DNA of 64,000 nt. Source: an uncultured Lentisphaerota bacterium (GTDB taxonomy: Bacteria; Verrucomicrobiota; Kiritimatiellia; CAIQIC01). A model generated the notes under the pieces. That model was not told where the DNA came from and did no database searches. It was given only the letters and a program-made list of their open reading frames with translations. The DNA is taken from contig CAISWQ010000047.1 of assembly GCA_903889245.1 (NCBI GenBank), positions 51,546 to 115,545 on the forward strand, read 5' to 3'. Below, piece by piece: positions 1 to 62,528 of the stretch. Numbering within the stretch: position 1 is the stretch's first letter; each line of letters opens with the position of its first letter. A program made the translations under genes and the position numbers.

Positions 1-1028
1 TGCAACGTGCGAATGGCCACGTTGAACTGCGCGCGCTGGTTGGGCGCGAGGAAGCCGAGCGCGCCGGTGTAGATGCCGCGCGGCGCGGTTTCCAGTCCGG
101 CGATGATCTTCGCCGTCTGCACCTTGGGCGCGCCGGTGATCGAGGCGCAGGGGAATAGCGCGCGGAAAACCTCCGGCCAGCCGGCGCGCGTTTGCGCTGT
201 CACGGTCGAGGTCATCTGCCAGAGCGTGGCGTGCCGCTCGACGGCAAAAAGATTTTCGGTATGGACGCTGCCAGGCCGTGCAAGGCGGCCGAGATCGTTG
301 CGTACCATGTCCACGATCATGATGTTCTCGGCCCGGTTCTTGGCCGAGGTGCGCAGGTCTTCGGCGATGCGCTCATCCTCGGCCAGCATGAGGCCGCGTG
401 GGGCGGTGCCTTTCATCGGGCGGCAGACGATGCGCGTGCCATCGCGGCGGAAGAACAGCTCCGGCGAAAGCGAGCAGAGGGCGTGATCGCCAAGGTCGAG
501 GAAGGCACCGTAGCCCGTCTGACCATCGGCCAGCAACGTTGCGGCCAGCGCGCCGAAGTCACCGCGCCAGGGCGCGCGCAGGCGAAAGGAATAGTTCACC
601 TGATAGGTTTCGCCTGCGGCAATCTTGCGCCGGATCGCGGTGATGGCGCGGCGGAACGCTGTGGGCGTCACAGCGGCGCTCCAGGATTTTTCCAAGGCTT
701 GGAAAGCGGAGGGGGAGTTTTTTCCAAGGCTTGGAAAAGCTGGCCGCGCGCGCACGTGCCGGGCGCGATAAAGGCCGAACCACAGCAGCGGCAGCGGTCC
801 CGGCCGGCGCGTTTGCAAGGCGGGATCGAAGGCGGGCGCGGCCTCGTAGGCGAGGAAACCCGCGGCCCACCAACCGCGCTGCACGACGGCGGAAATCTCC
901 GCCAGTGCGGGGATGACTTCGGCAATGGCGCGCACGGCAATGATCCGGTCGGGTTGTTGAAATTCCAGCCAGCGCGATTTCCCGGAATCGGACTTCTCCT
1001 GAATCAAAACTTTAGGGACGAACGGCAT
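1..1028 (-). CDS. pabB: Aminodeoxychorismate synthase component I (chorismate-binding), 3' end runs off the window
   Basis: Not in the ORF track because it has no stop in the window. Manual translation from ATG 1028 gives MPFVPKVLIQ...GFLAYEAAPAFD...AGETYQVN...FRALFPCASITGAPK...RGIYTGALGF...QFNVAIRT, typical PabB/TrpE motifs. Confidence 0.9.
   Translation of the reverse strand, partial: MPFVPKVLIQEKSDSGKSRWLEFQQPDRIIAVRAIAEVIPALAEISAVVQRGWWAAGFLAYEAAPAFDPALQTRRPGPLPLLWFGLYRARHVRARPAFPSLGKNSPSAFQALEKSWSAAVTPTAFRRAITAIRRKIAAGETYQVNYSFRLRAPWRGDFGALAATLLADGQTGYGAFLDLGDHALCSLSPELFFRRDGTRIVCRPMKGTAPRGLMLAEDERIAEDLRTSAKNRAENIMIVDMVRNDLGRLARPGSVHTENLFAVERHATLWQMTSTVTAQTRAGWPEVFRALFPCASITGAPKVQTAKIIAGLETAPRGIYTGALGFLAPNQRAQFNVAIRTL
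687..738. repeat. Two copies of the TTTTCCAAGGCTTGGAAAA palindrome, 32 bp apart, inside pabB
   Basis: Read directly; translated in-frame as PAFPSLGKNSPSAFQALEKS. Confidence 0.9.
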
Positions 1029-1051: not shown

Positions 1052-2815
<1,764 letters not shown>

Positions 2816-2874
2816 AAATGACAGGCGAAAACTACTCTTTTGCCCGGCGGAGTCAAGGCCCAGCGCGACGGGAG

Positions 2875-2929
2875 TTTCCAAGGATTGGAAAAGCAAACGC
2901 CGCCTTTTCCAAGGTTTGGAAAAGGCGGC
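2875..2929. repeat. Two palindrome copies; the second is extended into a 14-bp hairpin, probable terminator of the thioredoxin gene
   Basis: GCCGCC-TTTTCCAA-GGT-TTGGAAAA-GGCGGC at 2899-2929; copies are 31 bp apart. Confidence 0.8.
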
Positions 2930-7953: not shown

Positions 7954-7971
7954 AGGTCACTCGCTCTCTGG

Positions 7972-8115
7972 TTTCCAGGGATTGGAACGGCGAACCGCCG
8001 GTTTTTCCGGGGATTGGAAAAAGTCGCGGGAAAATTTCCAAGCCTTGGAAAAACCCAGCCGGACTTCTTCCAAGCCTTGGAAAAAACCGGCGCAACTTTT
8101 CCAAGCCTTGGAAAA
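7972..8115. repeat. Array of 5 palindrome copies, period 31-32 bp
   Basis: TTGGAA half-sites start at 7982, 8014, 8045, 8077 and 8108; spacers are non-identical. Confidence 0.92.
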
Positions 8116-9474: not shown

Positions 9475-9697
9475 GGTTCGATGTGGCGCAAAGATAGAAC
9501 AATGCTTCGGAGTTACAAGCCAAATGGATGTCCACCATATTTTGTGGGCCATTGCCGGAGCACCACAAGACACGCATTCCAAGGATTGAGATGCGCAAAC
9601 AGAAATGAGAACAGCAGGGTGCCCTTGGGGATGGCACTAATAAATTGTCTTGGTTGTTTTAATAATTTTCCTTGGAAAACCGGCGGACTGGTACGGC

Positions 9698-15417: not shown

Positions 15418-15732
15418 ATGATCCGCAAAGCGTTTGTCATGACCGTCAACGCCGGCAGCGAGCCCGAGTACGAGCGCCGGCACAATCCCATCTGGCCGGA
15501 GCTGGAGGCCACGCTCAAGCAGCACGGCGTCCACAACTACTCCATCTTCCTGCTGCCCGAAACGCGCCAGCTCTTCGGCTACGTCGAGATCGAGGATGAG
15601 GCGCGCTGGGCCGCCATCGCCAAGACCGCGTCCTGCCAGAAATGGTGGGCCCACATGCGCGACGTCATGACCTATAACCCCGACGGCACGCCGCACGCCG
15701 ACGCGCTCCGCGAAGTTTTCCACCTGGCTTGA
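15418..15732 (+). CDS. rhaM: L-rhamnose mutarotase
   Basis: [37 protein letters not shown]. Confidence 0.88.
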
Positions 15733-15844
15733 TTTCAGGGCTTGGAAGGGGGAGGGGGCTCATTGTCCAAGCATTGGAAGACCTCATCCGCAGATGATCC
15801 AAGGCTTGGAACGAGCGGTTAAATTTTTTCCAAGTCTCGGAAAA
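15733..15844. repeat. Array of 4 degenerate palindrome copies
   Basis: Right half-sites at 15742, 15774, 15806 and 15837 (period 32, 32, 31). Confidence 0.8.
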
Positions 15845-21368: not shown

Positions 21369-21481
21369 TTTTCCAAGGATTGGAAACGGGAACCGCTGGT
21401 TTTTCCAGGGATTGGAGAATCTCACCGATAACTTTCCAGGGTCTGGAAAATTTCATCAGAATTTTTCCAAGGCTTGGAAAA
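21369..21481. repeat. Array of 4 palindrome copies
   Basis: Right half-sites at 21380, 21412, 21443 and 21474. Confidence 0.9.
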
Positions 21482-23410: not shown

Positions 23411-25975
23411 ATGAAAAGGGTTTTCGCGCTCGCGCTGCTGGGCTGGCTCGGCCTGGCGGCGGAAGCCCGCGCCCGCGGCGGCGGGGGCTGCCTCGAAGCC
23501 GGCACCGGCATCTTGACACCGGCCGGGGAAATGCCTGTCGAGCAACTCCGACGCGGCGACGCCGTCATCGGCCTGCGCGACGGGCAGAGATTCCGCACGA
23601 CAGTCGCCGATGTCTTCGTCATTCATCCTGCGGAGTTCATCGAGATCACCGCCCACGGTCGGCTGCTCCGGTTGACACCGGAACATCCGGTCGCCATCGG
23701 TGAGGGTGAATTCCTCGCGGCGGAAAAGTTGCCCGGTGCCCACCGGGTTGCCGCGACGAAACCCGCTTTCAACCTGCTCGTCACCGAGGGCGGCGTCTTC
23801 TTTGCCAACGGCGTGCTGGTACACAACAAGGGCTGCTTTCTACCGGATACCGCCATCCTGCGGGCCGATGGCAACCGCGTGCTCATCAGCGCGGTGCAAC
23901 CCGGCGAACGCCTGCTGGCGTTCGACTCCGCTAATCGCCTGGTCACGGCGACGGTGGCCGAGGTCATTACGCACGCGGCGACGGAATTTGTCGTGCTCGC
24001 CACCGAGCGGGCGCAGGTACGCGTGACGGCGGAACATCCTTTTTTCATTGGTGATGGCCGCTTCAAGACCGTCGAGGCTCTGCGCCTTGGCGATGAAGTC
24101 TTCCTCTGCGATGAGCAGGGACTGCAACCGCAGCGCATCACGAGCATCGAGCGGGTGCAATCACCCGTCCGCGTTTTCAATCTGCGCACCGATGCGCCCC
24201 ACACCTTCTTCGCCAATGCGTTTGCCGTGCACAACAAGGGTGGCGGTTGTTTTCCGGCTGGGACGCGCATCGCGACGCCATCGGCTGATCGCGTCATTGA
24301 GCAGTTGGAACCGGGCGCGGCGGTGCTGGCGGTGGAGGAGTCCGGGTTGTGCGTGACCTCGGCCGTGCGCCGGATTTTCCGGCAGCGCGACGCCATCCTC
24401 ACCTTGCATACCGATCGCGGCGATCTGGGCACCACGGCCGAGCATCCGCTGCGCTTGTTTGCCGGCGGTTTCCGGCCGGCGGGCGAACTCGGCGCTGGCG
24501 CAAAGCTGACGGTGGTTCAGCACGGCCGGCTGGTCTCCGCGACGGTGCTCGGCGCGCAGCAGGGTGCTGCTGCGGTCGAGGTGTTCAACCTGGAGGTGGG
24601 GGCGCCGCATACCTTCATCGCCGATGGCTTCGTGGCGCACAACAAGGGCGGTGGCGGCAGCCGGGGCGGCGGCTTTCGGAGCAGCAGTCGCAACCATTCC
24701 GGCGGCGGCAAAGGTTCGGATAATCCGGTGCCGGGGCTGATCGCCTTTGGCTTCTTTATCCTGGTCTGCATCCTCATCATCCGCGCGGGGAAGCAGAAGC
24801 GCGAGGAGGAGAATCTCGATTTCGTCTATGCTCCCGGCAAGACCGCCGCGAAGGTGGCGCAGACGCGCAAGCTGCTGGAGTTCCTCGCGCGGCAGGATGA
24901 GGCGATGCAACCGGCGAAACTCGAGGCGGTGGTACGCGCGACCTTCCTCAAGTTGCAGGAGTGCTGGCAGGCGCGCGAGTATGCCCCGATGCAGCCGCTG
25001 CTGATGCGCGACCTCTTCCTGGACCACAACCGCCAGCTCGCCGGCCTGCAGCGCAACCACGAGATCAACATGATCGCCGATCTGAAGGTGGAGCGACTGG
25101 AGGTGGTACTCGTGCGCTATCCGCAGAAGCCCGACCAGCGCGAGTTCACCGCGCTCATCACGGCCAGCGCCAGGGATTTCTACGTGGACGACCGCAGCCT
25201 GAAGTTCCTGCGTGGCGATCAATCTCCGGCCGAGTTCCAGGAATTCTGGACTTTCCACCGTCAGGGTGACGCGTGGCTGCTGCGCGAGATCGAGCAGTCG
25301 CGCGAGTCCGGCGCGCTCAAGCAGGAGAACTTCGTCGAGCAGTTCACCGACGCGCAACTGCGCCAGATCTACGGCGGGGACGAACCTGCGCTGGGGCCAG
25401 CCGGGCCGTGGCTGGACAAGCCCGTGGAGAGCAAGGCGACCAAGATCGAACGGATGCTGAACTTCCTGGCGCAGACCGACAAGCTGTGGGAACAGCGCGC
25501 GATGGAGCAGCGCGTCCGGCAGGTCTTCACCGCGGTCAAGCTGGCCGAGGAAACCGGCGACGCGGCCGCCGTGCGCGGCGACCTGTTCCCCGATGCTGCC
25601 GCGCATCTGGCAGAGCAGCTCACGGCGCAGCGGCAACAGGGACTCACCCCCGAATATCGCAACCTCTGCGTGCGCAAGGTGGAGTTGATTCTGGTGCGCA
25701 ACCGCGCCGGCGCGGCCGCGGACGAGTTCACCGCGCGCATCAGCGCGCACGCGCAGCAGCTTGTCCGGCGCGCCGATGGCTCTGCAATCGCGCGCGACGA
25801 CTATGTCAAACCCTTCGTCGAGTTCTGGACCTTCGGCCGGCTCGACCAGGTCTGGAAACTCAAGGAAGTCCTGCCTGCGGCCAGTGGGGAAAGTGCGCTG
25901 GCCGCGGAGAATGTGGACGAGGACAGCAACGCGGCACAACTCCGTTGGTATTACACGAAGAAGCGCGCCACCTGA
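23411..25975 (+). CDS. Exported membrane protein: signal peptide, 3 tandem Hint (bacterial intein-like) domains, Gly-rich linker, TM helix, 2 Tim44-like domains
   Basis: Hints at 23489-23827, 23834-24235 and 24248-24643; each starts with Cys (CLEAG, CFLPD, CFPAG), has TxEHP block B and ends VHN/AHN. The C-terminal repeats end EFWTFHR..WLL and EFWTFGR..WKL. Confidence 0.88.
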   Translation: MKRVFALALLGWLGLAAEARARGGGGCLEAGTGILTPAGEMPVEQLRRGDAVIGLRDGQRFRTTVADVFVIHPAEFIEITAHGRLLRLTPEHPVAIGEGEFLAAEKLPGAHRVAATKPAFNLLVTEGGVFFANGVLVHNKGCFLPDTAILRADGNRVLISAVQPGERLLAFDSANRLVTATVAEVITHAATEFVVLATERAQVRVTAEHPFFIGDGRFKTVEALRLGDEVFLCDEQGLQPQRITSIERVQSPVRVFNLRTDAPHTFFANAFAVHNKGGGCFPAGTRIATPSADRVIEQLEPGAAVLAVEESGLCVTSAVRRIFRQRDAILTLHTDRGDLGTTAEHPLRLFAGGFRPAGELGAGAKLTVVQHGRLVSATVLGAQQGAAAVEVFNLEVGAPHTFIADGFVAHNKGGGGSRGGGFRSSSRNHSGGGKGSDNPVPGLIAFGFFILVCILIIRAGKQKREEENLDFVYAPGKTAAKVAQTRKLLEFLARQDEAMQPAKLEAVVRATFLKLQECWQAREYAPMQPLLMRDLFLDHNRQLAGLQRNHEINMIADLKVERLEVVLVRYPQKPDQREFTALITASARDFYVDDRSLKFLRGDQSPAEFQEFWTFHRQGDAWLLREIEQSRESGALKQENFVEQFTDAQLRQIYGGDEPALGPAGPWLDKPVESKATKIERMLNFLAQTDKLWEQRAMEQRVRQVFTAVKLAEETGDAAAVRGDLFPDAAAHLAEQLTAQRQQGLTPEYRNLCVRKVELILVRNRAGAAADEFTARISAHAQQLVRRADGSAIARDDYVKPFVEFWTFGRLDQVWKLKEVLPAASGESALAAENVDEDSNAAQLRWYYTKKRAT

Positions 25976-28903: not shown

Positions 28904-28952
28904 TACGCGGCGTTGCCGGTTCATGCCCAAGCCATGAAGAATTCCCGCGGTC

Positions 28953-29000
28953 TTCCAAGGCTTGGAAAAAAGAGACTGCGATTTTCCAAGCCTTGGAAAA
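28953..29000. repeat. Two palindrome copies between convergent genes
   Basis: Right half-sites at 28962 and 28993. Confidence 0.85.
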
Positions 29001-30366: not shown

Positions 30367-32646
30367 TCACTCCACGCGCACCCAGCGGCGGCTCATGGTC
30401 GCGTCCTGTGCGTCCTGGCCCCCGGCGCGGGCGACGGCCTTCACAACGCACTCGCCCGCCGCCGCCGCCGGCACCGGCAGCGCCACGGCCAGCGTCTGCG
30501 AGCCGAGTTCGGCCAGCGCGAACGGCTGCTGCGCCTGCGCCAGCACCTGGCCGGCCTTGGTCTCCAGTGTCAGCGTCACCTGCCCGTGCAGCGGCCGCGC
30601 CTCGTCGTTGACCAGCATCACGGTGAAGTCGCGCACCGCGCCGGCCTTCAGCGTCGGCTGGAAGAAGTTGAGGTAGACGCCCAGCGGCTTGAACGCCTCG
30701 CCCATGTAGTCGGCGAAGGCGGGGTCGAGCTTGAGCGCCGTCACGTCGGCGAAGTGGTCCGCCGTGTAAACGCCGGGATAGCTGCACGTGAGGTAGACGA
30801 AGTGGATGATGCCCGCATACTGGCGGTGCGCGCGCCAGAATTCCGTCTTCGCGCCGAGCAGGTACGCATACAGGTCGAGCCGCTGGCGCGCGGTGACATT
30901 CGTGCCCATGAGTTGTGCGTAGACGTTCGCGGTCAGTAGCGTCGGTGTGCCATCACGGTTGAGCCAGAGCCAGCCGTATTCGTTGATGAGCACGGGATTC
31001 GTGTCCGAGGGCAGCCGGCCCTTGGGCGGCTTGCCGTCCATCGTCTCCAGCTTGGTCATGTCGAACGTCAGCTTGCCGCGGTAGCCGCTGCTCATCAGGT
31101 AGGGATGATGCTCGACCGGGTCGTTCGGCCCGGCGGGCTTGTTATAGCTGTTCTCCCACGCGCGGCCGGAGAGGTCGAGCCCGCGCACGGCGGGGATGAT
31201 CTTCGCGCCGAAGATGTCGTCCTTCGTCTCGTTGTTCGCGTCCCAGACCACGACGCTCGGATGGTTCCAGTTGTCGCGCATCCAGTCCTTATACTGGCGG
31301 ATCATCTCGTCGGCGTCGTGCGTGCGCGCATAGCCCTTGTACCAGCCGGGCCCGCCGGTCCAGACGAAGAACTCGTTCTGGATCAGCAGCCCGACCTCGT
31401 CGCAGATGTCGAGCCACTTGTCCGGCACCGGCCCGATGCAAAACCGGAAATAATTCCAGTGCATCTGCTTCGGCAGGTCGCCGAGCAGGCGGCGCACCCA
31501 GCCCTCGTCCCACGGCAGGGCCTGGCACAGCGGGTCCTCGAAGAAACGGTGCAGCGTGATGTTCGAGCCGCGCAGATAATAGACCTTGCCGTTGAGCCAG
31601 GCGCGCCGCGTCGCGGCGTCGAACCGGAACTCGCGCATCCCGAAGCGCGTCGTCACCTCGTCGCCGCGCGTGCGCGCGGTCAGCGTGTAGAGGAACGGGT
31701 CCTCCGGCGACCAGAGCCGGCAGTTCTTGATGGGCACGAGCACGTCCAGTTCCTTCACGCCGGCCTCGGCGTGGACCTTGGTTTCGCCCGCGAGCTGGCC
31801 GGACTTGGCCTCGCGAACCTCCAGCGCGACGCCCGTCGCTTGCGTGCCATCGAGATAGACGCGCACCTTCGCCTGCTGCTTGGCGATCTCCGGCGCGACC
31901 TGCACGGCCGCGATCAGCGGGCTATCGCAGCAGATCACCGACACGCTGTCGTAGATGCCCGGCGACCACTTGATCTTCTCGAAGTCCGAGCCGGTCGGGA
32001 ACGTGTCCGGCAGCACGGCCGGGTGCGCGCCGATGCGGATGACGAGCGTGTTCTCCGCGTTCCAGCGGATGGCCTTGCCCAGCGGGAAGAGGCCCGCCGT
32101 GAAGCAGCCCGCGTACTCGCCCAGCTTCTCGCCGTTGAGCCAGACCGCGGTACCGAACTGCGCCTTGTTGATCTTCAGCAGCGCCACTGCGCGCGCCGCC
32201 GGCGCCCGGAACGTCTTCCGGTACCAGAAATAGTTGCGGTCCTGGTCCACCTTGCCCGTCCAGTATTTTTGCAGCCAGTCCTCCGGCGCGAGCTTCGAGC
32301 GGATGCGGTTGGCCATGTTCTCGCGGCTGGTGAATTTATCCACGTCGGCGAACGCCGGCTGGGCCAGGTTCGCCAAGCCCGGCACCGGCACCGTGCGCGT
32401 GAACTCTGCCGGCGCTTGGTCGAGCTTGCCCTCGGCAATCTGCCACGGCCCGTCGAGCGCCATCACCTGCCGCGCCGCCTGCGTTTCCAGGGATTGGAAA
32501 AGCAGAACCGCGAAAATTCCAGCCGAGCTTGCGAGACGGGCAGCCTTGCTGCCAACCATTGGAAAAGTCAGACGCGAAATTTTCCAAGGCTTGGAACTTT
32601 TGTCGCGGTTTTTTCCAAGGCCTGGAAACCAGTACTTCGTTTTCAT
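30367..32646 (-). CDS. Secreted GH2-family glycoside hydrolase with repeat-derived N-terminus
   Basis: Sugar-binding domain, TRFGMREF, YLRGSN, DICDEVGLLIQNE, NHPSVVVWDANNE, INEYG; N-terminus FPGLGK..SKPWK..FPMVG..FQSLE. Confidence 0.8.
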   Translation of the reverse strand: MKTKYWFPGLGKNRDKSSKPWKISRLTFPMVGSKAARLASSAGIFAVLLFQSLETQAARQVMALDGPWQIAEGKLDQAPAEFTRTVPVPGLANLAQPAFADVDKFTSRENMANRIRSKLAPEDWLQKYWTGKVDQDRNYFWYRKTFRAPAARAVALLKINKAQFGTAVWLNGEKLGEYAGCFTAGLFPLGKAIRWNAENTLVIRIGAHPAVLPDTFPTGSDFEKIKWSPGIYDSVSVICCDSPLIAAVQVAPEIAKQQAKVRVYLDGTQATGVALEVREAKSGQLAGETKVHAEAGVKELDVLVPIKNCRLWSPEDPFLYTLTARTRGDEVTTRFGMREFRFDAATRRAWLNGKVYYLRGSNITLHRFFEDPLCQALPWDEGWVRRLLGDLPKQMHWNYFRFCIGPVPDKWLDICDEVGLLIQNEFFVWTGGPGWYKGYARTHDADEMIRQYKDWMRDNWNHPSVVVWDANNETKDDIFGAKIIPAVRGLDLSGRAWENSYNKPAGPNDPVEHHPYLMSSGYRGKLTFDMTKLETMDGKPPKGRLPSDTNPVLINEYGWLWLNRDGTPTLLTANVYAQLMGTNVTARQRLDLYAYLLGAKTEFWRAHRQYAGIIHFVYLTCSYPGVYTADHFADVTALKLDPAFADYMGEAFKPLGVYLNFFQPTLKAGAVRDFTVMLVNDEARPLHGQVTLTLETKAGQVLAQAQQPFALAELGSQTLAVALPVPAAAAGECVVKAVARAGGQDAQDATMSRRWVRVE
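32484..32628. repeat. Four palindrome copies within the GH2 signal-peptide coding region
   Basis: Right half-sites at 32494, 32559, 32591 and 32622 (spacing 65, 32, 31). Confidence 0.85.
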
Positions 32647-32679: not shown

Positions 32680-32782
32680 GTAGGCCGGGTCTCCGACCCG
32701 GCGCTCTGTGCGCCCGGTGAAGTCACCGGGCCTACAACGCAAAGAAGACGGCCGTGTTGTAGGCCGCGTGACCTCACGCGGC
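32680..32782. repeat. GTAG-type REP/BIME-like cluster (3 units)
   Basis: GTAGGCCGGGTCTCCGACCCGGC; inverted GCCCGGTGAAGTCACCGGGCCTAC; GTAGGCCGCGTGACCTCACGCGGC. Confidence 0.85.
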
Positions 32783-32793
32783 GCATCGCTCAT

Positions 32794-34014
32794 CTATTTC
32801 GCAAGCCCAAGCCGGTGCTTTGCCCATAGCAGGTTGGCCAAGAGGCCGGGGCTGGATTTGATCCGGCCTTGGTTGGCGGCGATAAACACCGGCAACAGTT
32901 CCGGCTGAAATTCGCAGAGGTCAATCCAGCCGCCGCCGAGGCCGCCGGGCGGATGCTTGCCGGCGGTGCCATCCACACGGCCCAGGAATTTGTTCCCCGG
33001 CTGCAGTAGCACGCAACTGACGGTGTTGGCGAACGGGCGCATCTGGTCGGCGGTGAGGCCGTAGCGGCCGCTCACAAAGGCGCGCATCAGCCCGCCGATA
33101 TCATAGCCGCCATGGCCCGTGTCCTCGTAGTGCTTCGGCGGCTGCTCGAAGGCATAGGTCCACTTGTAGCACGGCTTGCCCTGCACCTCGTAGCGCTCCG
33201 CCGCCGCGAAGAACCAGTCCACCGACGCCTTCACGATGGCGTCGTAGCGTTGCACGCGCGCGTCGTCATCACCGAGCAGCCGGTGACATTCCGCGAGCCG
33301 TTGGAAGCCGTTATTGAGCATCGTCTGCTGGTTCCAAGGCACAGGCTGGTTGGCGGAACCGGGGCGGGAGGCAGCATCGTAGCGCGGCGAATCGGGCGTG
33401 TAGCAGCGCAGCGTGCCGGGCCGCACGTACCACTTGAGCAGGAAACCATCCAGCGTGCGCTCCAGCTCGTGCACATAGGTGACCGCGCGCTCGCGATAGG
33501 TCGTGCCGAAGCCATGCAGATTGCCGTCGGGAACTTTTTCCGCCCACAGTTTTTTGTTTTCCAGAATCAGCCGCGCCGCGTAGGCGATGTGGCCCACGAT
33601 GTCACCGTTCTCGGTGCCGGAGTAAGCCGCGTCCTTGGCATCGGCCGCCTTGTTCGGCCAGACCAGCTCGCGCGCGCCGGTCCAGATGAGCCGGCCGGTC
33701 TGCGGGTCGTTGCGCGCCGCCAGCATGCGGTCGGCGAATACGAGCATCCGGTCGAGCAGGGCCACGTCACCGCTGATCTCGTAGACGCGGCCGAGCGCCT
33801 CAGCCGCCTCGCCGCCCGCGCCATAGACGAACGCGTTGTGGAAATTGTTGGAAGGCGGCACGACCTCCGCCATGAAGTTCTTGAACGCCTGGATTTCGCG
33901 CGTCGTCACCGGCCCGGCGGAATTTTCCACGAGCATCGGCTCGACGGCTTCCACGGATTGGAAAAAGGCGAGAGTCAGAATTCCAAGGCGTGGAAGCCAG
34001 CGTCTTGTTTTCAT
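32794..34014 (-). CDS. Secreted hypothetical protein, possibly an alpha/alpha-toroid carbohydrate-active enzyme
   Basis: 406-aa ORF with typical codon usage; N-terminus MKTRRWLPRLGILTLAFFQSVEA contains two palindrome copies (33951-33996). Fold is a guess. Confidence 0.6.
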   Translation of the reverse strand: MKTRRWLPRLGILTLAFFQSVEAVEPMLVENSAGPVTTREIQAFKNFMAEVVPPSNNFHNAFVYGAGGEAAEALGRVYEISGDVALLDRMLVFADRMLAARNDPQTGRLIWTGARELVWPNKAADAKDAAYSGTENGDIVGHIAYAARLILENKKLWAEKVPDGNLHGFGTTYRERAVTYVHELERTLDGFLLKWYVRPGTLRCYTPDSPRYDAASRPGSANQPVPWNQQTMLNNGFQRLAECHRLLGDDDARVQRYDAIVKASVDWFFAAAERYEVQGKPCYKWTYAFEQPPKHYEDTGHGGYDIGGLMRAFVSGRYGLTADQMRPFANTVSCVLLQPGNKFLGRVDGTAGKHPPGGLGGGWIDLCEFQPELLPVFIAANQGRIKSSPGLLANLLWAKHRLGLAK

Positions 34015-34046: not shown

Positions 34047-34191
34047 GTAGGCCGGGTCTCCGACCCGGCGCTCTGTTCGCCCGGTCAGAGACCGGGCCTA
34101 CAACCGGCGTCGCGTGAAACGCCCGGTGAGGTCACCGGGCCTACAACGAAAAGAAGATGGCCGTGTTGTAGGCCGCGTGACCTCACGCGGC
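34047..34191. repeat. GTAG-type REP/BIME-like cluster (4 units), near-direct repeat of 32680-32782
   Basis: Same units, order and linkers as the 32680 cluster, plus one extra unit. Confidence 0.85.
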
Positions 34192-34199
34192 GAGCATAA

Positions 34200-37127
34200 T
34201 CATCTTCCGGCTTGCGTGGCGACTTGCGGGCCGAGGCGCTGCTGGCGCGGGGTATAGTCGGGCCAGAGCGGGCAGTTCAGGTCGATCCAGCATTTCAGCG
34301 CGTGCATCTCGTCGCGCGTGAGCTGCACGCCGTGGTGGCCGGCGTCGAGCGTCTGCCAGAGCTTGCTCTTGAGCGTGCCAAACGTGAGCGGTTCGGCCTT
34401 CGCGTGGCGCAGGCGGTAGGTCATGTCGAAGTAGTGCACCCAGCCGCCGGCGATCAGCGTGCGGTAGGAGGCGGGGACCTTCTCGGCATCGAGCGTGCCG
34501 GCGAGGTTGAGCTTCTGCTTGTGGTTCGCGTCGTGGCAGCGCACACACCGCGCATCGAGCACCGGCTGCACGACGCGCTCGAAGCTGAACGGCACCGCGC
34601 CCCACGGCGGCGGCGCGAGCGTCGCTGGCGCGCACCGCGCAGCGAGGGTGGGGGCGACCGGCGCCGCGCCATGCCGGTGTTCGTGGCAGCCGATGCAGCT
34701 CCGCCGCTCGCCCGGCTGGAGCTGCACGACGCTGCGCATCCGCTGCAGCTCGTTCAGGTTTTCGTCGAGTGCCTCGAAGTAGAGGACCTTGCCGGCGGGC
34801 GCGGTGAAATTCGCCGAGCCATCGGCGGCGACTGGCGCGAGGCCGAGCGCCGCCTTCGCCACGTAGCTCGGCCAGCCGCCAGGCCCGCTGACCTTGTGGA
34901 TCGGCGTGGCATAAAAATCGGTGAACACCGGCCCGTGGTCGCGGCGAAACTCGCCGCTCGGCAGTTGCTCGAGGTTGGCGCGGACCTCCTCGCAGACGCG
35001 AATGAATTTCACGCGGCCGCGCGCAACGGCGGGCGCGAGGCCCTGATACACATCGGCCACGGTGAACTGCCCGAACTCCGTCGCCGCGGGTACGGCCGCG
35101 CCGAGCACCGGCGGACGCGGCACCTGGCGCAGCAGCGTCGGCGTCATACTGCCGATGTTCGGGTCGAGATAGAGCAACTCGCGGTTGCCCCAGCGGTCGG
35201 CGAGGAACAGGCCCCAGCGGTCGGCGGGCGCGTGGCTGGCGAGGAAGTAGTCGCGCGTGACCGGCACCGGATCGCGCCAGCATTCCTGCCGCGGCCAGCT
35301 CATGTTGTAGTGCGCCACGGTGTCCGGCGTGATGTTCAGCAGCGCGTTCGTGTCCGCCGGCGACTGCGCTCGCGCGAGGTCAATCAGGCCGAGCGGTCCG
35401 TTGTGGTCGCCGCCGTGCGAGAAGATGGTGCAGAGGATTTCGCGCGTGCCGGGCACCTCGCGGCCGTTGATGTAGCAGTTCGGCGTATCGTTGCCGAAGA
35501 CCAGCTCCGGGTGCGTGCCGTCGGGCCGGATCGCCCAGAGCGTGTGGCCGAAGTCCGCGCCCTTGTCGATGTATTCCGACCGCGTCCAGAGGATGCGCCC
35601 GTCGCGCATCACCGCCGGCGACCACTCGCTCAAGTTCGCGAACGAGAGCGGGCGGATGTCGCCGCTGGTCTCGCGGCGGAAGAGCACGAACGCCTGCGGC
35701 CGCCAGCACAGGAAGCGCGCGTGGCAGCGCGTGCTGATGAACGCAAGCGCGCCATCCGGAAGCGGGCACGGATAATAATCGTGGAACGGCCCCTCCGTGA
35801 GCTGGCGTGCGCGGCCGCCGCCGGAGTCCATTTCCATCAGGTGCCAGTAGGGCTCCTGCTCGCCGGGCCGTGGCGCGCTGGGGCGGAAGGCGAAGAAGAT
35901 TTTCTGCGCGTCGAAATCAGCCATCGCGTCGCGCGCGATGCCCGCGCTCGCGTCGAACAACGTCGCCAGCCGCGCGCCGGCCGGATCGAGCGCGCCCCCG
36001 CGCCGCGGCAGCTCCAGCACGCAGACGCCGCCGCCCGGCTTGAACTGCGAGTCCAGCACGTCGCTGTAGTTGTGCGACGAAAGGTAGGGATGCCGCTTCA
36101 CAAACAGGATGCGCTGCAACGACGCGAGGTCGGGGTCGGTGAAGAGCCACCGGCGCTTCGCCAGGCGCGCGTCGAGAAAGAGCGCCTCGCTGTCGCCCGC
36201 CGCCAGCCGCTGCTTCAGCCCCGCCAGTTCCGCACGACCGGCCGCGACCTCCACGCCCTTCTCCGCCAGCCGCGCGAGCAACTCGGCCAGTTGCGTCAGC
36301 GCGCGCTCTGTGGGCGTGAGGCGCGCGATGGCGCTCCAATAGGGGATCTCCTTCTTCAGCGGCGAGAGATGATCGGTCGCGTTCATCCGCTGCCACGTGG
36401 CGCGCTCGCACAGGAACGCGTAGCGCACGAGGCTCTCGTAGCTCGTCGGCTCCGGCAGCGGCACGATCGGCGGGCGCGGCACGGCGCGCGGCCCGCCCGC
36501 GAACCCTGCGTTCAGCGCCGCCACCTTGCGCCACGCCTTGCCATCGCCGGAGAGCTGCACCTCGATATTCATCGGCACGCGGTCGTGGAATTTCCCCTCG
36601 CGGTCACGCGAGAAGACGACCTTCGCGACCTGCGCCGGCTGCGGCAGCTCGATTTGCGCCCACTCATCGCCGGCCGACGCCGCAATCCAGCTATGCCCGT
36701 TCCCATACAGCCCATCGTTGAGGTGCGCCACCTGATGGATCGCGTAGCCCGCGAGGCATGAGGACGCCGAAGCCTTCGCGCCCGCACCCGCCAGCGCGAG
36801 GTTGCGCTTGCCATCGGCTCCGAAGATTTCCAGCTCATCAAGGCACGCCTGCCCCGCACTGCTTGCATGAATGACGAACCGCACGAACTTCGCCGGCTGC
36901 GCCGCAAAGCTAACCACATTCGCCGCCTCCGCCCGCACCACCACTTGCGTCGGTGCCGCGAAAGCTTCCAGAGCTTGGAAAACCAACAACCCCAAAATTC
37001 CAGCCGAGCTTGCGAGACAGGCCGTCTTGCTGCCAACCATTGGAAAAGTTAAGCATGAAATTTTCCAGGCCCTGGAAAATCCTGCCGGATTTTTCCCAAG
37101 CCTTGGAGCCTGGATACGTGCGTTCAT
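34200..37127 (-). CDS. Secreted discoidin (F5/8 type C) + beta-propeller + HzsA-like middle domain + di-heme cytochrome c protein
   Basis: HLNDGLYGNGHSW discoidin-like segment; YTRSEYIDK-type propeller motif (WTRSEYIDK); ADGSANFTAPAGKVLYFEALDEN..QRMRS..QPGERRSCIGCHE; second CVRCH motif. Confidence 0.7.
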   Translation of the reverse strand: MNARIQAPRLGKNPAGFSRAWKISCLTFPMVGSKTACLASSAGILGLLVFQALEAFAAPTQVVVRAEAANVVSFAAQPAKFVRFVIHASSAGQACLDELEIFGADGKRNLALAGAGAKASASSCLAGYAIHQVAHLNDGLYGNGHSWIAASAGDEWAQIELPQPAQVAKVVFSRDREGKFHDRVPMNIEVQLSGDGKAWRKVAALNAGFAGGPRAVPRPPIVPLPEPTSYESLVRYAFLCERATWQRMNATDHLSPLKKEIPYWSAIARLTPTERALTQLAELLARLAEKGVEVAAGRAELAGLKQRLAAGDSEALFLDARLAKRRWLFTDPDLASLQRILFVKRHPYLSSHNYSDVLDSQFKPGGGVCVLELPRRGGALDPAGARLATLFDASAGIARDAMADFDAQKIFFAFRPSAPRPGEQEPYWHLMEMDSGGGRARQLTEGPFHDYYPCPLPDGALAFISTRCHARFLCWRPQAFVLFRRETSGDIRPLSFANLSEWSPAVMRDGRILWTRSEYIDKGADFGHTLWAIRPDGTHPELVFGNDTPNCYINGREVPGTREILCTIFSHGGDHNGPLGLIDLARAQSPADTNALLNITPDTVAHYNMSWPRQECWRDPVPVTRDYFLASHAPADRWGLFLADRWGNRELLYLDPNIGSMTPTLLRQVPRPPVLGAAVPAATEFGQFTVADVYQGLAPAVARGRVKFIRVCEEVRANLEQLPSGEFRRDHGPVFTDFYATPIHKVSGPGGWPSYVAKAALGLAPVAADGSANFTAPAGKVLYFEALDENLNELQRMRSVVQLQPGERRSCIGCHEHRHGAAPVAPTLAARCAPATLAPPPWGAVPFSFERVVQPVLDARCVRCHDANHKQKLNLAGTLDAEKVPASYRTLIAGGWVHYFDMTYRLRHAKAEPLTFGTLKSKLWQTLDAGHHGVQLTRDEMHALKCWIDLNCPLWPDYTPRQQRLGPQVATQAGR
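36966..37107. repeat. Four palindrome copies within the signal-peptide coding region; cassette nearly identical to 32484-32628
   Basis: Right half-sites at 36975, 37040, 37072 and 37103; shared AAAATTCCAGCCGAGCTTGCGAGAC..CTTGCTGCCAACCATTGGAAAAGT. Confidence 0.85.
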
Positions 37128-41607: not shown

Positions 41608-41692
41608 TTTTTCCAAGGCTTGGAAATTATTTCCACATTTTTCCCAAGGCTTGGAAAAACATGAGGTTGCCGTTTTCAATCCTTGGAAAAAA
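41608..41692. repeat. Three palindrome copies upstream of the glycosidase
   Basis: Right half-sites at 41620, 41651 and 41683. Confidence 0.85.
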
Positions 41693-47412: not shown

Positions 47413-47492
47413 TTTTGGGGGCGGGAGCTCCAGCTCCCGCGAAAGAAAACCAACGCCAACGGACGCGGGAGCTGGAGCTCCCGCCCACAAAA
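47413..47492. repeat. Inverted REP doublet (REPIN-like), GTGG-type
   Basis: TTTTGGGGGCGGGAGCTCCAGCTCCCGC ... GCGGGAGCTGGAGCTCCCGCCCACAAAA. Confidence 0.75.
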
Positions 47493-47510
47493 CCAGCGGA
47501 GTGCGCGTGG

Positions 47511-47621
47511 TTTCCATGGATTGGAATGCCATGCCCCCGGATTTTCCAAGCCTTGGAAAAAATCAGCCGCCGTTTTCCGGGGCTTGGAAAAATTCCTGCG
47601 TCATTTTCCAAGGCTTGGAAA
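47511..47621. repeat. Array of 4 palindrome copies
   Basis: Right half-sites at 47521, 47553, 47584 and 47615. Confidence 0.9.
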
Positions 47622-47628
47622 CGTGGGC

Positions 47629-53899: not shown

Positions 53900-56154
53900 G
53901 GTTTTCCATCCGGCTTGTTGTTGCCGGCCGCATCCTGCGCACGGATGGCGGCGACCCAAATCTGGCTATCGCCGCCGCCAAAACCGATGTGTTGCAGAGC
54001 GCGACTGTGGTCGAGGGACTCCGGCGGGATACGGAAGCGCAGCGTGTCCCACTGCGGTTTGCGCGAGAGCGGCTGCTCCGGGCGCACGGGAATCCAGACC
54101 TTCTGCCGCGTGTTGATGGAGATGGTTTGCAACTGCGACTCGCCCCAGACATCCATCTCGAGCAACAGCGGCTTGGTGCGGTCGGCGGCCATGACGTGGA
54201 AGGTCGCCCAGCCATTGGCCTTGTCGCCCGGCCCGGTCTCGTCGGAATTCCAGCAGCGCCGGCCGCCCTTCATTTCCGCTTCGCCAAAACTGCTGTTAGC
54301 CACGCCCAGTTGCGCGCCTGTCTTCCAGCTCTTCACATAGTCGGCCGCTTCGCGCACGTTGCAGAAGGTGAGCGCCTTTTGGCCGGCCGCCTGCGCGGCC
54401 TCCCGGCAGGCCGGATCGCCGGTAGCCGCGAACCGGGCTTCCTGCTCGAAGCCTTCGATCATCCAGTAGCCATAGCGGAAGGTCTGCGCCACGCCGGCCA
54501 CGTGCTGCGCGGCGGTCGCGTCGCCGCCGGCCAGTTGCCGGGCGCGCTCCAGCGCGGCCAACGCGCGGTCGAGGCTCGCCTTCTCAAAGAGGCCGGCCGC
54601 CTGCGTGCGCGGATTGTCGCTATAGGCCCGGCCGGTCCGGCGCACGGCCGTCTCGATGGCGTCATAGAATTCCGTCATGGCCGGCGCCGCCGCTCCGAAC
54701 ATCCCCGCGATCCATTCGCGCGCGCACGCCTCCGGGTCGGCGGCCGGGTCCCACAGCAGCTTCGCGATGACGTAGTAAAGCGGGCCATCGAGCGGCCAGT
54801 CGTTGAGCGAGCTCTGGCAGTAGTAGCGCCGCACGCCGAGCGCGTGCAGGTATTTGATGTCGGCGGCGAACGTGTGCAGCACCGGGCGCGGCAGGCGCCA
54901 CCACATGGATTTGCTGACGTAGCTATAGATCATCAAGTCCGGCGTCAATCGCGTCCAGCGCTTGAGCAACTGGTTGAACTGCGCGTTGGCCGCCGAGGCG
55001 GGATCGTTGATCGCGCGGCTGTAGTCCGCCGGCGCGTAGTGGCAGAGGAACGGCACGACGTTCGGCCCGGGCCGGACCGTGTCGGGCGGCTCCGCATAAT
55101 TGATGTAGGCCAGCACCAGCAACTTTTTGTCGGGACATGTCTGCGCCACGCGGCCGGCCACCTCGTTGGCAAACCAGAACACGCGGTCGCCCATGAACGG
55201 CTTCTCCTTCGCGAGCCCCTGGCTGGTCGCGCGCGCGCCGCAGAGTTTTTTGTCGAGCGCCAGACACGCCTCGCACTCGCACCACCCGCCATCATCGTTG
55301 GGGCTGATGGAAAGCATGGGCGCGCCGGGATCCTCGGCAAAGGCCCGGACGACGTTCGCGGCGAACTCGTCGGCCAGGCCCGGCGCGGTCACGCAGAGCT
55401 GGTTGTGGGACTCGGTGGACGGCATCCGTTTGCCATCGAGGAGCGGATACCAGGCGGGGTGCGCCGCGAAGTAGCGCTTGGCCGGGATGATTTGGTGATA
55501 GGCGTGGACGCCATGAATGCTCCGCGGCCAGAAGGCGCACGCGCCGTTCGAGGCGGCGGACTCCGCCGCGTAGAAACCGTTCAGCCCGAGCTTCTGGCCC
55601 CAGCGCTCGTTGCCCGTCTTGTGCGTCGAAAACAAACGCCACGCGAACGCCGGCTGCGTATCGACGTGGAACGGCTCCACGTTGATGGTCTCCCGCTGCG
55701 GGACGAGTTCGTCCTCCGGCGTCAGCCAGCGGCAGCCGAGCGTTTCCAAAAACCGGTAGACGCCGAACAGACTTCCCCGCTCGCCGCCGCCGCAGATCGT
55801 TACGCCGTCCGGCCCGGCCGCGAGCCACACGCGCTCGTCGCCGCCGAAGTCCGTGGGTAGTTGCCGGCGCGCGGCCTGCGTCAAGCCCACGTCGATGCGC
55901 GCTCCATTGATGGGCATGCCTTCCTGAACGATGGGCAGCCTGGCGTGCGACATCCGCTCCAGATACGCGCCCAATTCCTGCGCTGCCACGCGCACCGTCG
56001 CCGAGGCCTCCGCCGGCACCACGATGGTGGCGCGCGCCTCGCTGTTTTCCACGAGGGTCACCGCCTGCGCGCCCACGGCCAGCGCGCAAACCAGCGCCAG
56101 CGTTTCCAAGCCTTGGAAAAAACTGCGCGGTTGGATGATGACAAAGAGTTTCAT
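53896..56154 (-). CDS. Secreted DUF4838-domain protein (GH20/GH67-like N-terminus)
   Basis: GSLFGVYRFLETLGCRW, SISPNDDGGWCEC, LAYINYAEPP; signal peptide contains FFQGLET from a palindrome copy at 56103-56122. Confidence 0.65.
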   Translation of the reverse strand: MKLFVIIQPRSFFQGLETLALVCALAVGAQAVTLVENSEARATIVVPAEASATVRVAAQELGAYLERMSHARLPIVQEGMPINGARIDVGLTQAARRQLPTDFGGDERVWLAAGPDGVTICGGGERGSLFGVYRFLETLGCRWLTPEDELVPQRETINVEPFHVDTQPAFAWRLFSTHKTGNERWGQKLGLNGFYAAESAASNGACAFWPRSIHGVHAYHQIIPAKRYFAAHPAWYPLLDGKRMPSTESHNQLCVTAPGLADEFAANVVRAFAEDPGAPMLSISPNDDGGWCECEACLALDKKLCGARATSQGLAKEKPFMGDRVFWFANEVAGRVAQTCPDKKLLVLAYINYAEPPDTVRPGPNVVPFLCHYAPADYSRAINDPASAANAQFNQLLKRWTRLTPDLMIYSYVSKSMWWRLPRPVLHTFAADIKYLHALGVRRYYCQSSLNDWPLDGPLYYVIAKLLWDPAADPEACAREWIAGMFGAAAPAMTEFYDAIETAVRRTGRAYSDNPRTQAAGLFEKASLDRALAALERARQLAGGDATAAQHVAGVAQTFRYGYWMIEGFEQEARFAATGDPACREAAQAAGQKALTFCNVREAADYVKSWKTGAQLGVANSSFGEAEMKGGRRCWNSDETGPGDKANGWATFHVMAADRTKPLLLEMDVWGESQLQTISINTRQKVWIPVRPEQPLSRKPQWDTLRFRIPPESLDHSRALQHIGFGGGDSQIWVAAIRAQDAAGNNKPDGKP

Positions 56155-59471: not shown

Positions 59472-59507
59472 GGTTGTTCCGTCTCTGTGTTTCCAAGGTC
59501 AGGAAAA

Positions 59508-60764: not shown

Positions 60765-60914
60765 GCACCTTCTCCTTCAAATACCCGCCATCACAGCGAC
60801 ACCATGCATTTATGCCTGTGCCAGCGCGCCGTGTGAATGCCCGGCCTCACAAAATTCATACCTTTCCTCACAATGGCGCTTGCGCCGCCTTGGGCCGCTT
60901 GGCAGACTCCGGCC

Positions 60915-61751
60915 ATGGCCAAGGCGGTGACCAACTATGACGGCGTGCGCATTGCGTGGGATCACCGCAGCGTGCGTTCGCCGCGCGTCGTGTTCGGGCA
61001 GGTGCGCTACCAGCCCGGCGGCTACTGCGGCCCGCGCATCCAACGCGACTACCAACTCGTCCTGCTCCACTCCGGCTCGTGTGCGGTGCGTGTGGACCGC
61101 GCGCAGCACGAGCTGCGGCCGGGCACGGTCGCGCTGTTTCTGCCCGGGCACCACGAGCGGTTCACCTTCGATCCGCAGACCGAGACCCATCACACGTGGT
61201 GCTCGGTCCAGCCGGCATTCCTGCCCGCTACGCTGCGGCGGGAACTGCAGCGCGCGCCGGCGGGCGGGCTGCCCTGCTCGGAGACTTTCCAGCGCATCCT
61301 CTCCGCCGCGTACCTGCTGCGTGCCGTGCAGTCGCCGGTCGCGGCGCGCGTGGTGGACTCGCTCGCGCTGGCGTTGTTTGCCGAGTTTCTGGATATGGCG
61401 CGGCACGCCACGGTATCGGTCGAGCGGCGCGACGAAGCCGTCGCCCGCGCGCTGCGGCACATGGAGGATCATCTCGACACGGAGGAGTGCCTGCACGGTG
61501 CCCAGCGCGCCGCCGGCTGCTCGGTGAACGCGCTGCTTTATAAATTCCGCTCCGCGCTCGGCACGACGCCCGCGCGCCACCTCTGGCGGCTGCGGACGGA
61601 GAAGGGGCTGGCGCTGCTCGCGGAAACCGGTTGGACGGTGGCGGAGATTGCCGAGCGTTGCGGCTTCAAGAACCCGTTCCACTTCTCACGCAGCATCCGC
61701 AAGCACCACGGCCACGCCCCGCGCGAACTGCGCCGCCGCGCTTGGGCGTGA
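60915..61751 (+). CDS. AraC-family transcriptional regulator
   Basis: N-terminal cupin; C-terminal double HTH VAEIAERCGFKNPFHFSR; divergent from the glycan operon. Confidence 0.9.
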   Translation: MAKAVTNYDGVRIAWDHRSVRSPRVVFGQVRYQPGGYCGPRIQRDYQLVLLHSGSCAVRVDRAQHELRPGTVALFLPGHHERFTFDPQTETHHTWCSVQPAFLPATLRRELQRAPAGGLPCSETFQRILSAAYLLRAVQSPVAARVVDSLALALFAEFLDMARHATVSVERRDEAVARALRHMEDHLDTEECLHGAQRAAGCSVNALLYKFRSALGTTPARHLWRLRTEKGLALLAETGWTVAEIAERCGFKNPFHFSRSIRKHHGHAPRELRRRAWA

Positions 61752-61760
61752 GGGGGGCGT

Positions 61761-61838
61761 TCCCGGGGCAGGGGAAATACTGCGTAGAATTTTTCCAGAC
61801 TTGGGAAAACCGGCCGGCCCGGTTTCCAATCCTTGGAT
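61761..61838. repeat. Three degenerate palindrome copies between convergent genes
   Basis: Half-sites at about 61770, 61801 and 61833. Confidence 0.65.
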
Positions 61839-61851
61839 AAGAGGACGGACT

Positions 61852-62253: not shown

Positions 62254-62348
62254 GCGGTCACTACAGCGCAGCAGGGGTGGTTCGTCAAGGCGGAGATTTC
62301 CCCGCTTGCTTTTTCGGGGTGGACGGCTACTCTCTGCCGCGACGAAGC

Positions 62349-62504
62349 GTGTCTTCGGGGCAAGGTGAGGGCCGGCGGTCACTAGCGCCGGCGCAATTCC
62401 TGACCGGCGGTTTAGCCCGCGAGTCCCGCCCGAGCGGCAGGACTGACACGGCGCTCCCGAAAGGGATCCGTGGCCGACAGTAAAGTCTGGATGGAAGAAG
62501 GCAC
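62349..62504 (+). promoter_or_regulatory. FMN riboswitch with hairpin insertions
   Basis: GTGTCTTCGGGGCAAGGTGA..AATTCCTGACCGGCGGT..AGCCCGCGAG..GCCGACAGTAAAGTCTGGATGGAAGAAGGCAC, upstream of ribBA. Confidence 0.92.
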
Positions 62505-62528
62505 ACTCCGCCGGATGTCCGGCTGTGC

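Follow-up and report, generated by a model that had tools for sequence, protein, structure and literature searches.

Helically phased arrays of a 19-bp palindrome in uncultured Kiritimatiellae-like bacteria

Arrays of type 2 bacterial interspersed mosaic elements (BIME-2) are binding sites for a protein, gyrase. DNA fragments that carry the DNA uptake sequence (DUS) in Neisseria, or the uptake signal sequence (USS) in Pasteurellaceae, are taken up and recombined in preference to others. A distance of three helical turns between palindromes is known from the Lrp sites at pap and ilvIH and from NrdR boxes, which stand in tandem 31-32 bp apart. We analyzed a stretch of 64,000 nucleotides of contig CAISWQ010000047.1 (positions 51,546 to 115,545), called the window below, in which a 19-bp palindrome recurs in short arrays with a period of 31-32 bp. 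A survey of repetitive extragenic palindromic (REP) sequences that covered bacteria of the Planctomycetes-Verrucomicrobia-Chlamydiae (PVC) superphylum dealt with tagged families only, and untagged families await study (PMC3733652). In the literature searched for the motif string and for REPs in Verrucomicrobia or Kiritimatiellae we found no description of the repeat.

The palindromic unit, its phasing and its conservation

The window has a G+C content of 64.9% and is part of a 160-kb metagenome scaffold. Its closest proteins come from metagenome-assembled genomes (MAGs) labelled Kiritimatiellaeota or Verrucomicrobia. The repeated unit is a 19-bp palindrome, TTTTCCAAG[G/C]CTTGGAAAA, and it is strongly over-represented. 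The pattern TTTTCCAAGSCTTGGAAAA gave 27 matches in the window at up to 3 mismatches, while 0.01 were expected. A scan that ignored the centre base gave 28, 35 and 43 units at up to 3, 4 and 5 mismatches, compared with 0, 0.1 and 0.5 units, respectively, in block shuffles of the window. The density is approximately 0.5 units per kb. We observed 14 arrays of 1-5 units each within 64 kb, and arrays occur approximately every 4-5 kb. An initial annotation, made from the letters of the window, had listed about 40 copies at 14 or more loci, and we found that all 14 exist; two of its start points, 15731 and 61759, correspond to weak units with 6 and 7 mismatches, respectively.

In the unit consensus and in the position table the outer ends of the 19-mer are runs of T or A on both sides. 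No terminal GTAG or CGTC tag was found in either, as the initial annotation had said of GTAG, and the outer flanks were without a conserved motif. The centre base was G in 124 units, C in 108 and A or T in 5. Centre bases of neighbouring units combine at random; therefore, the units have no orientation, and the same result rules out doublets built as inverted pairs of the kind seen in REPINs (REP doublets forming hairpins). Longer elements with half-site borders were also considered and rejected, with approximately 85% of the TTTCCAA/TTGGAAA heptamers lying within full units and orphan half-sites near background. One intergenic sequence upstream of hom, TTTTCCTTGGAAAA at window positions 9672-9690, is a unit without its central bases.

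The units are strictly phased. In the five-unit array at 7971..8115, which had been singled out in the initial annotation, units start at 7971, 8003, 8034, 8066 and 8097, which gives intervals of 32, 31, 32 and 31 bp. Tandem Repeats Finder reported periods of 31 and 32 at this locus and also at 21400 and 47541. For arrays of at least 3 units, from the window and from related genomes, the interval was 31 bp in 36 cases, 32 bp in 34 and 29 bp in one. An interval of 31 or 32 bp was also seen throughout six public MAG species, with 29 bp being rare. Spacers are 12-13 bp long and carry little positional information (the first base is often A, the last often T, and the middle is GC-rich). Thus both earlier statements on spacing, a peak at 31-32 bp and spacers that vary in sequence and not in length, agree with our data, as between species the length is kept and the sequence drifts. 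A regular alternation of 31 and 32 bp was not significant (24 alternating vs 18 repeated intervals). Growth of arrays by recent tandem duplication was rejected, as adjacent spacers were no more similar than distant ones. Spacers of doublets are not shared in the manner of copies of a single master. At the CALGXT01 loci L024, L029, L039 and L044 many spacers are small palindromes in their own right (ATTTCCGAAAAA or AATTTCGGAAAT type) and look like a unit that has lost its centre.

The family is restricted to a single clade. It was found in at least nine related uncultured PVC genomes, named Verrucomicrobia, Lentisphaerae or Kiritimatiellaeota. MAGs with the motif include SCQF01, CALGXT01, CAIWHP01, CALLML01, CAZAAF01, CAYLTB01 and the BUCK21/GROS21 bins, and GCA_026398385.1 is a relative without it. 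A scan for perfect doublets, with one genome per species, gave at least 53 loci in six MAG species, which differ from the genome of the window and share genes 71-82% identical to it at the DNA level. Doublets of the form unit-N13-unit predominate in SCQF01. Further members were found by orthologue look-ups (L140, L141 and L143) and at lysC-anchored metagenome loci (L060-L062, L065, L068, L069 and L071), in which pabB was not present. The central triplet varies by lineage (GSC in the window, CCC/GGG in L065, TCA in L071), and TTCCAA...TTGGAA is kept. We did not observe any units in the sister Kiritimatiellaeota contig L142 (15 kb) or in L064 (17 kb). In contig L144 (GROS21 scaffold_970, 68% G+C), which belongs to the clade, 16 kb contain just three units, all of them single and degenerate, and the first ThiD unit is degraded (LPELGQ). 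On this evidence the family appears to be decaying in the L144 lineage. The absence from L142 and L064, together with the decay in L144, fits a putative dependence on a trans-acting factor. A low density in the L065 genome was not significant (1 array in 17 kb vs approximately 3.6 expected). On viral contigs single units stood alone in five places, in unrelated phages of low G+C content; this is chance level, and there were no arrays.

Units and spacer lengths are conserved between species. Contig L140 is syntenic with the window contig, with 75-93% amino acid identity over six shared genes. The array between hom and lysC has 4 units in L140 and 5 in the window contig, and the arrays upstream of thiC, inside pabB and inside thiD have 2 units in both. 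Between the two contigs, 61.5% of four-fold degenerate sites (n = 1491) were identical, compared with 88.3% of positions in orthologous units (151/171, p = 5e-15) and 73% in orthologous spacers (38/52, p = 0.055); units and spacers differed from each other (Fisher p = 0.014). Both contigs share derived variants, AAACC upstream of thiC and AGAGC in thiD, which indicates vertical descent and not re-copying. The flagged array takes up the interval from the hom stop (8170) to the lysC start (7953), ending 17 nt before the lysC start codon, and its gene-proximal unit is the variant GTTTCCAGGGATTGGAACG. An array is kept at lysC in relatives with 72-95% lysC identity, and orthologous hom-lysC arrays of 2-4 units were found in L060, L061, L062, L065, L069, L071 and L140. 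The lysC spacers of the window, L060, L061, L062 and L140 (2-5 units) are recognisably orthologous; they have diverged and kept their length. One SCQF doublet follows a stop codon where the window counterpart is without a doublet. Altogether, the comparison of presence and absence across related genomes, proposed in the initial annotation, gave positions and unit numbers that are largely shared, with some gains and losses.

Approximately 94% of arrays are intergenic and approximately 6% (some 7 cases) lie within real open reading frames (ORFs). Many in-ORF matches from the crude gene caller were discarded as artefacts, since they lay in antisense frames or were 5' leaders (IlvC, DapA, one lipoprotein). 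No frame of the unit contains a stop codon, and the unit reads FSKAWK, FPRLGK or FQGLEK. The thiC-pabB-thiDE operon has almost no intergenic DNA, yet it carries an array approximately every 2 kb. Its doublet at 688..738, with 32-bp spacing, lies in the pabB-like gene on the minus strand, reads FPSLGK-NSPSA-FQALEK in frame and is present in the SCQF orthologue. Most orthologues of the clade (67-76% identity) have this doublet as FPSLGK-x5-FQALEK, and in three (P0006, P0010 and P0011) it is degraded. The pabB homologues P0003, P0004 and P0007 carry an extra variable insertion, such as GAQSCCARTSGRHAQWAQQDCAP, just upstream of the doublet (alignment columns 105-126).

Two other genic doublets arose in place. 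The ThiD doublet FPELGKLLGRNFQGLEE aligns without gaps to LPEAEVLLGRPIRTEEE in ThiD proteins of solved structure. Of 54 aligned ThiD homologues, all 19 members of the clade (at least 66% identity) had [FVIL]PELGKLLGxDFQGLEx; LPEAEALLGR... stood in its place, with the length unchanged, in all outgroups and in the sister lineage (63-64%). The departure of the ThiD unit from the consensus, GAG for AGG, preserves a conserved Glu. In CinA (L023) the doublet region and its counterpart in Thermus CinA are within 4 residues of each other in length, and the Thermus protein natively has PRLG there. As the length change is 0 in ThiD and at most 4 residues in CinA, both doublets were formed without insertion of a unit. 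Two correctly spaced units made by substitution in conserved coding sequence point to selection or drive for the DNA motif, and on these alignments the ThiD and CinA doublets cannot be accounted for by a mobile element that simply inserted there. In nine ThiDE homologues (P0122, P0124, P0126-P0128, P0132, P0133, P0138 and P0141) there are 10-40 extra residues right after the second ThiD unit, e.g. SPQ...GAAP..CG..E, which look like a translated GC-rich repeat. Their position suggests that the doublet edge in ThiDE may be a hot spot for insertion.

Explanations for the arrays

We tentatively favour, at slightly short of an even chance, the reading that the units are selected, helically phased sites at which a symmetric protein binds double-stranded DNA and forms oligomers along it. 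Phased binding sites were also the first suggestion of the initial annotation. This reading is preferred since the units and the spacer length are constrained, the palindrome is symmetric and bounded, arrays occur in all types of intergenic region, and two doublets, in ThiD and CinA, were formed in place. It is from these features that we infer protein binding, the dimeric and oligomerising state and the role. A symmetric, probably dimeric, protein would recognise the unit on double-stranded DNA. It would contact the half-site TTTTCCAA, and the central three base pairs would be looser and free to vary between lineages. Adjacent dimers would touch along one face of the helix, and sites would in this way be held 31-32 bp, or three turns, apart. 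Purifying selection, or a drive acting via the same recognition, would preserve each site, and in operons too tight to offer intergenic space the motif would be written into coding DNA. The likely role would be architectural or one of genome-wide marking (nucleoid organisation, loop anchoring, topology) and not the control of a single regulon. That as many as five units in a row keep strict phase speaks for cooperative binding of an oligomer.

A bolder form of this proposal seems to us possible and rather unlikely. It would make the arrays a genome-wide DNA code of a PVC (Kiritimatiellae-like) clade, in which a symmetric protein polymerises at three-turn intervals, with a site approximately every 4-5 kb, approximately 1,000 arrays per genome, and ThiD and CinA rewritten under selection or drive for the site. 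If true, this would be a new chromosome-organising system, or the first palindromic, array-forming signal for uptake or self-marking.

Several observations weigh against the binding-site proposal. Sites of nucleoid proteins and regulators are normally degenerate, and thousands of near-perfect 19-mers are more typical of copy-paste or uptake-signal drive. No candidate for the binding protein was found beside the largest arrays, where the genes are unrelated housekeeping genes, or beside hom, where the small ORF encodes a membrane protein. The pabB outgroups are without the doublet and 17-20 residues shorter at that point; the pabB doublet is, judging from the alignment, an old insertion. The SCQF locus L004, which has a doublet, is approximately 64 nt longer than its empty CAIWHP orthologue L048. 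In SCQF, pairs of similar spacers (at least 9 identical bases) numbered 23, compared with 7.8 expected, and this excess hints that whole 31-32-bp units may share some ancestry. One observation in favour of the proposal, that arrays of the window were more evenly placed than a random choice of intergenic regions (coefficient of variation 0.47 vs 0.78, P = 0.016), comes from a test made on one window with 14 arrays.

The best surviving alternative, which we nevertheless consider unlikely, is a drive like that of uptake signals. The palindrome would then be the preferred sequence of a DNA-uptake or recombination-linked machinery, and fragments that carry it would be preferentially taken up. The near-perfect consensus and the rewriting inside genes are, by analogy, reminiscent of such signals. 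A density of approximately 0.5 units per kb would agree with it, and so would a motif made by substitution in conserved coding regions at compatible peptides, positions conserved between species, lineage-specific centre variants, loss or decay in whole lineages, the more than random evenness of the arrays, and a symmetric unit without orientation bias. Known uptake signals, however, are asymmetric 9-12-mers and mostly single, and a receptor for one site leaves strict 31-32-bp arrays unexplained. The share of arrays in real ORFs, approximately 6%, is far below that of USS in Haemophilus, and natural competence is not known for the clade.

Selfish palindromes of an untagged REP, REPIN or BIME-like family, spread and tandem-amplified by a dedicated transposase and some of them perhaps used by the host, are in our opinion improbable. 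The high copy number, the mainly extragenic location and the occurrence as singles, doublets (dominant in SCQF) and clusters are what such a family would give, and the existence of untagged families is acknowledged (PMC3733652). Presence and absence between species, with added length at filled sites, and the old insertion in pabB point in the same direction. The GTAG/CGTC tag is absent, however, and doublet spacers do not look like copies of one master. The initial annotation had raised the possibility of a transposase or a RAYT (REP-associated tyrosine transposase) beside the arrays. We found no transposase, RAYT or Y1 gene among the called genes of window positions 1-60.5 kb and of L140, L143 and L144 (approximately 110 kb of annotated context), and the neighbours of large arrays are unrelated housekeeping genes. 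Individual copies are far better conserved than neutral sites and share derived variants, and insertion does not account for the doublets in ThiD and CinA. Nine contigs from the population of the window, with identical proteins and 99.96-100% identity to the window, were without polymorphism; as a strain comparison they were set aside, polymorphism being unreadable.

A third explanation would make the arrays operators of one oligomeric transcription factor, Lrp/AsnC- or NrdR-like, with a large regulon that includes hom-lysC and thiC-pabB-thiDE. A three-turn spacing of palindromes is classic for such regulators, relatives have kept the lysC-proximal array, and several arrays lie 13-40 nt upstream of start codons. 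The genomic context makes this very doubtful. Counted over the window and 53 loci from related MAGs, array-bearing intergenic regions were tandem in 36 cases, convergent in 15 and divergent in 14, against a background of 148, 37 and 34, respectively. These proportions are close to the background, so the arrays are neither promoter- nor terminator-specific, and convergent regions are as frequent among them as expected. Scans with promoter and terminator consensus sequences gave nothing consistent, and a hand-read thiC promoter, TTGACT-N16-TAGTTT, failed the promoter scan and was not used. Approximately 7.6% of the window is intergenic and 10 of its 29 intergenic regions carry an array; such an occupancy, approximately one third, is too high for a specific regulon. 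Arrays also occur in ORFs and beside functionally unrelated genes, and no Lrp/AsnC-type gene was found among the called genes.

The unit may also be regarded as an RNA element, i.e. an 8-bp hairpin that acts in leaders and intercistronic mRNA (stability, processing or protein binding) or serves as a source of small RNAs, the latter having been suggested in the initial annotation. Many arrays do lie in 5' leaders or between co-transcribed genes such as hom and lysC. As a transcript, the flagged region gives a better fold than its shuffles (z = -4.3), which is expected of any palindrome array. For units with a known direction of transcription, G:U-compatible mismatches between the arms numbered 39 on the sense and 47 on the antisense strand, so G:U and A:C mismatches show no strand bias. 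The arm sequence itself is conserved, beyond the pairing of the arms. Flanks of the units are not complementary (2.84 vs 2.78 pairs of 10) and stems stop there; extension of the hairpin into the flanks was considered and not found, with unit 2905, which forms a terminator-like hairpin with its flanks, as the lone exception. That unit belongs to the doublet at 2874..2923, located just past the stop of a thioredoxin-family gene and 57-106 nt upstream of a thiamine pyrophosphate (TPP) riboswitch (window 2728-2817, minus strand) and thiC; in L140 the spacer of the orthologous doublet is conserved. The thiC leader fixes the start of the transcript, therefore the doublet is outside that transcript. 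Convergent and divergent spacers carry arrays equally often, and Rfam gave no relevant match at the gathering threshold or at permissive E-values, only sub-threshold miRNA-like noise. We consider an RNA element, including the small-RNA alternative, highly improbable, and these features argue for a candidate site that is sharply bounded, symmetric and read as double-stranded DNA, against a hairpin RNA.

CRISPR-like micro-arrays, in which an integrase would insert 12-13-bp spacers and duplicate a palindromic repeat, would have a fixed spacer length, a near-random spacer sequence and a palindromic repeat in their favour, but can hardly be the explanation, as a 19-bp repeat with 12-13-bp spacers is far outside the CRISPR range, the arrays are very many and tiny and not few and long, no cas, Cas1 or casposase genes were found among the called genes of the window, spacers are vertically inherited and orthologous between species, and doublets arise in place within genes. 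The mini-arrays propagated by a nuclease or transposase that had been proposed in the initial annotation find no support, with no transposase, RAYT or cas gene among the called genes of the window, orphan half-sites not enriched, spacers vertically inherited and two in-gene doublets that are not insertions.

Other arrays and features of the window

Several further arrays of the window lie in intergenic regions. Three units and the degenerate unit at 15731 (15731..15844) precede a plus-strand gene for a pyridine-nucleotide oxidoreductase (start 15916). Four units with intervals of 32, 31 and 31 bp occupy 21369..21481, between the stop of a GH1 gene (21491) and the start of a metallophosphatase gene. 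The doublet at 28951..29000 lies between convergent genes, for a PAS protein (plus strand, ends at 28903) and a GFO_IDH oxidoreductase (minus strand, ends at 29004). Three units (31 and 32 bp) at 41609..41690 begin 13 nt upstream of the start codon of an 854-aa gene, with a GGAGG ribosome-binding site in between. The array at 47510..47622, again with four units at 32, 31 and 31 bp, is found between a sulfatase stop (47629) and the start of a 527-aa gene (47366). A GC-rich palindrome, GCGGGAGCTCCAGCTCCCGC, forms an inverted pair at 47421-47484, between this array and the start of the downstream gene; a related sequence follows an array in another MAG (L046, approximately 250-290). The single unit at 56102..56120 is just within the called N-terminus of a DUF4838 gene (called start 56154). 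A single degenerate unit with 4 mismatches, at 59489..59507, fills the gap between a URO-D stop (59508) and the start of a 1082-aa gene (59471). Two degenerate units at 61790..61840 are located downstream of the plus-strand gene 60837-61751.

Three loci are associated with secreted proteins. The composite 5' module of a GH2 gene at 32483..32629 consists of a variant unit (FQSLET), a signal-peptide stretch, a degenerate unit with the probable ATG and two good units. Its paralogue at 36964..37110 is at the 5' end of a gene for a 946-aa protein. In both modules the 46-bp stretch between units is nearly identical and its minus strand codes for the signal peptides MVGSKAARLASSAGIFAVLLFQSLET and MVGSKTACLASSAGILGLLVFQALEA. 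The initial annotation had explained spacings of 65 bp by the loss of a unit; arrays with this spacing do exist, but the stretch is not simply a decayed unit, as it codes for signal peptides. At 33947..33997 two degenerate units lie at the 5' end of a gene for a 406-aa secreted protein and code for part of its signal peptide (FFQSVEA). In all three cases (32483-32646, 33947-34014 and 36964-37127, minus strand) the variant unit codes for the C-terminal part of the signal peptide, as FQSLET, FQSVEA and FQALEA, respectively. For two of the three proteins the probable start codon is within a degenerate unit (CCAATGGTTGG). Several called starts placed upstream of arrays in the window are probably wrong; the arrays are a source of error in gene calling.

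The window also contains a distinct REP family with the GTAG tag, GTAGGCCGGGTCTCCGACCCGGC, as the initial annotation had reported. It has three copies, at 32680-32702 and 34047-34069 on the plus strand and at 34079-34101 on the minus strand, which include an inverted pair. These copies are just upstream of the array-bearing 5' modules of two genes for secreted proteins. An unusual 854-aa protein, encoded at 23411-25975 on the plus strand and unrelated to the repeats, matches Hint/intein-type and Tim44-like domains, and a flavin mononucleotide (FMN) riboswitch at 62347-62506, also on the plus strand, lies upstream of a gene that starts near 62470.

Comparison with known systems

The family resembles the REP, BIME and REPIN elements of proteobacteria in being made of high-copy, short and mostly extragenic palindromes that occur as singles, pairs and tandem clusters. 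Unlike tagged REPs, it has no GTAG/CGTC and consists of an orientation-free, perfect 19-bp palindrome with strict 31-32-bp phasing and free spacers. Also unlike REPs, its copies are individually conserved between species and some were made in place in coding DNA. It shares with the DUS of Neisseria and the USS of Pasteurellaceae a massive over-representation, orthologous positions, lineage dialects, substitution inside genes and fairly even spacing; in contrast to them it is palindromic, 19 bp long, helically phased in arrays and approximately 94% intergenic. With the operator arrays of Lrp/AsnC and NrdR it has in common a centre-to-centre distance of three turns, which implies cooperative binding on one face. 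Those operators, however, are neither genome-wide nor independent of promoters, whereas the present arrays are found in approximately one third of intergenic regions, are not tied to promoters and have a near-perfect consensus.

Rickettsia palindromic elements (RPE) are likewise palindromes in frame in housekeeping genes, and the pabB doublet resembles them, but they are insertions of 100-150 bp, while our units have 19 bp and did not enter ThiD and CinA by insertion. Neisserial intergenic mosaic elements (NIMEs), in which 20-bp dRS3 palindromes flank variable RS units, and mycobacterial interspersed repetitive units (MIRUs) show a similar dispersed, intergenic alternation of conserved and variable parts; here the period is fixed at 31-32 bp, and not 50-150 bp, there is no link to phage integration, and the number of units did not vary within the sampled population. 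CRISPR differs in having repeats of approximately 23-55 bp and spacers of approximately 21-72 bp, in few long arrays beside cas genes.

Dispersed bacterial repeats are usually filed as selfish REP DNA or miniature inverted-repeat transposable elements (MITEs); here each site and the helical phase are constrained at approximately 40% synonymous change, and the motif has entered conserved enzymes with little or no change in length. Such a combination would imply a sequence-reading machinery that acts chromosome-wide in an uncultured and little-studied lineage of bacteria that degrade polysaccharides. An architectural protein acting genome-wide, or a system for uptake or self-recognition, would in either case be new for the PVC superphylum. 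The 19-mer, the 31.5-bp phase and the motif-free sister lineage give a handle for finding this machinery. In summary, the combination of properties is unusual, and the kinds of system that it resembles are REP/BIME-like elements, uptake-signal-like sequences and phased operator arrays.

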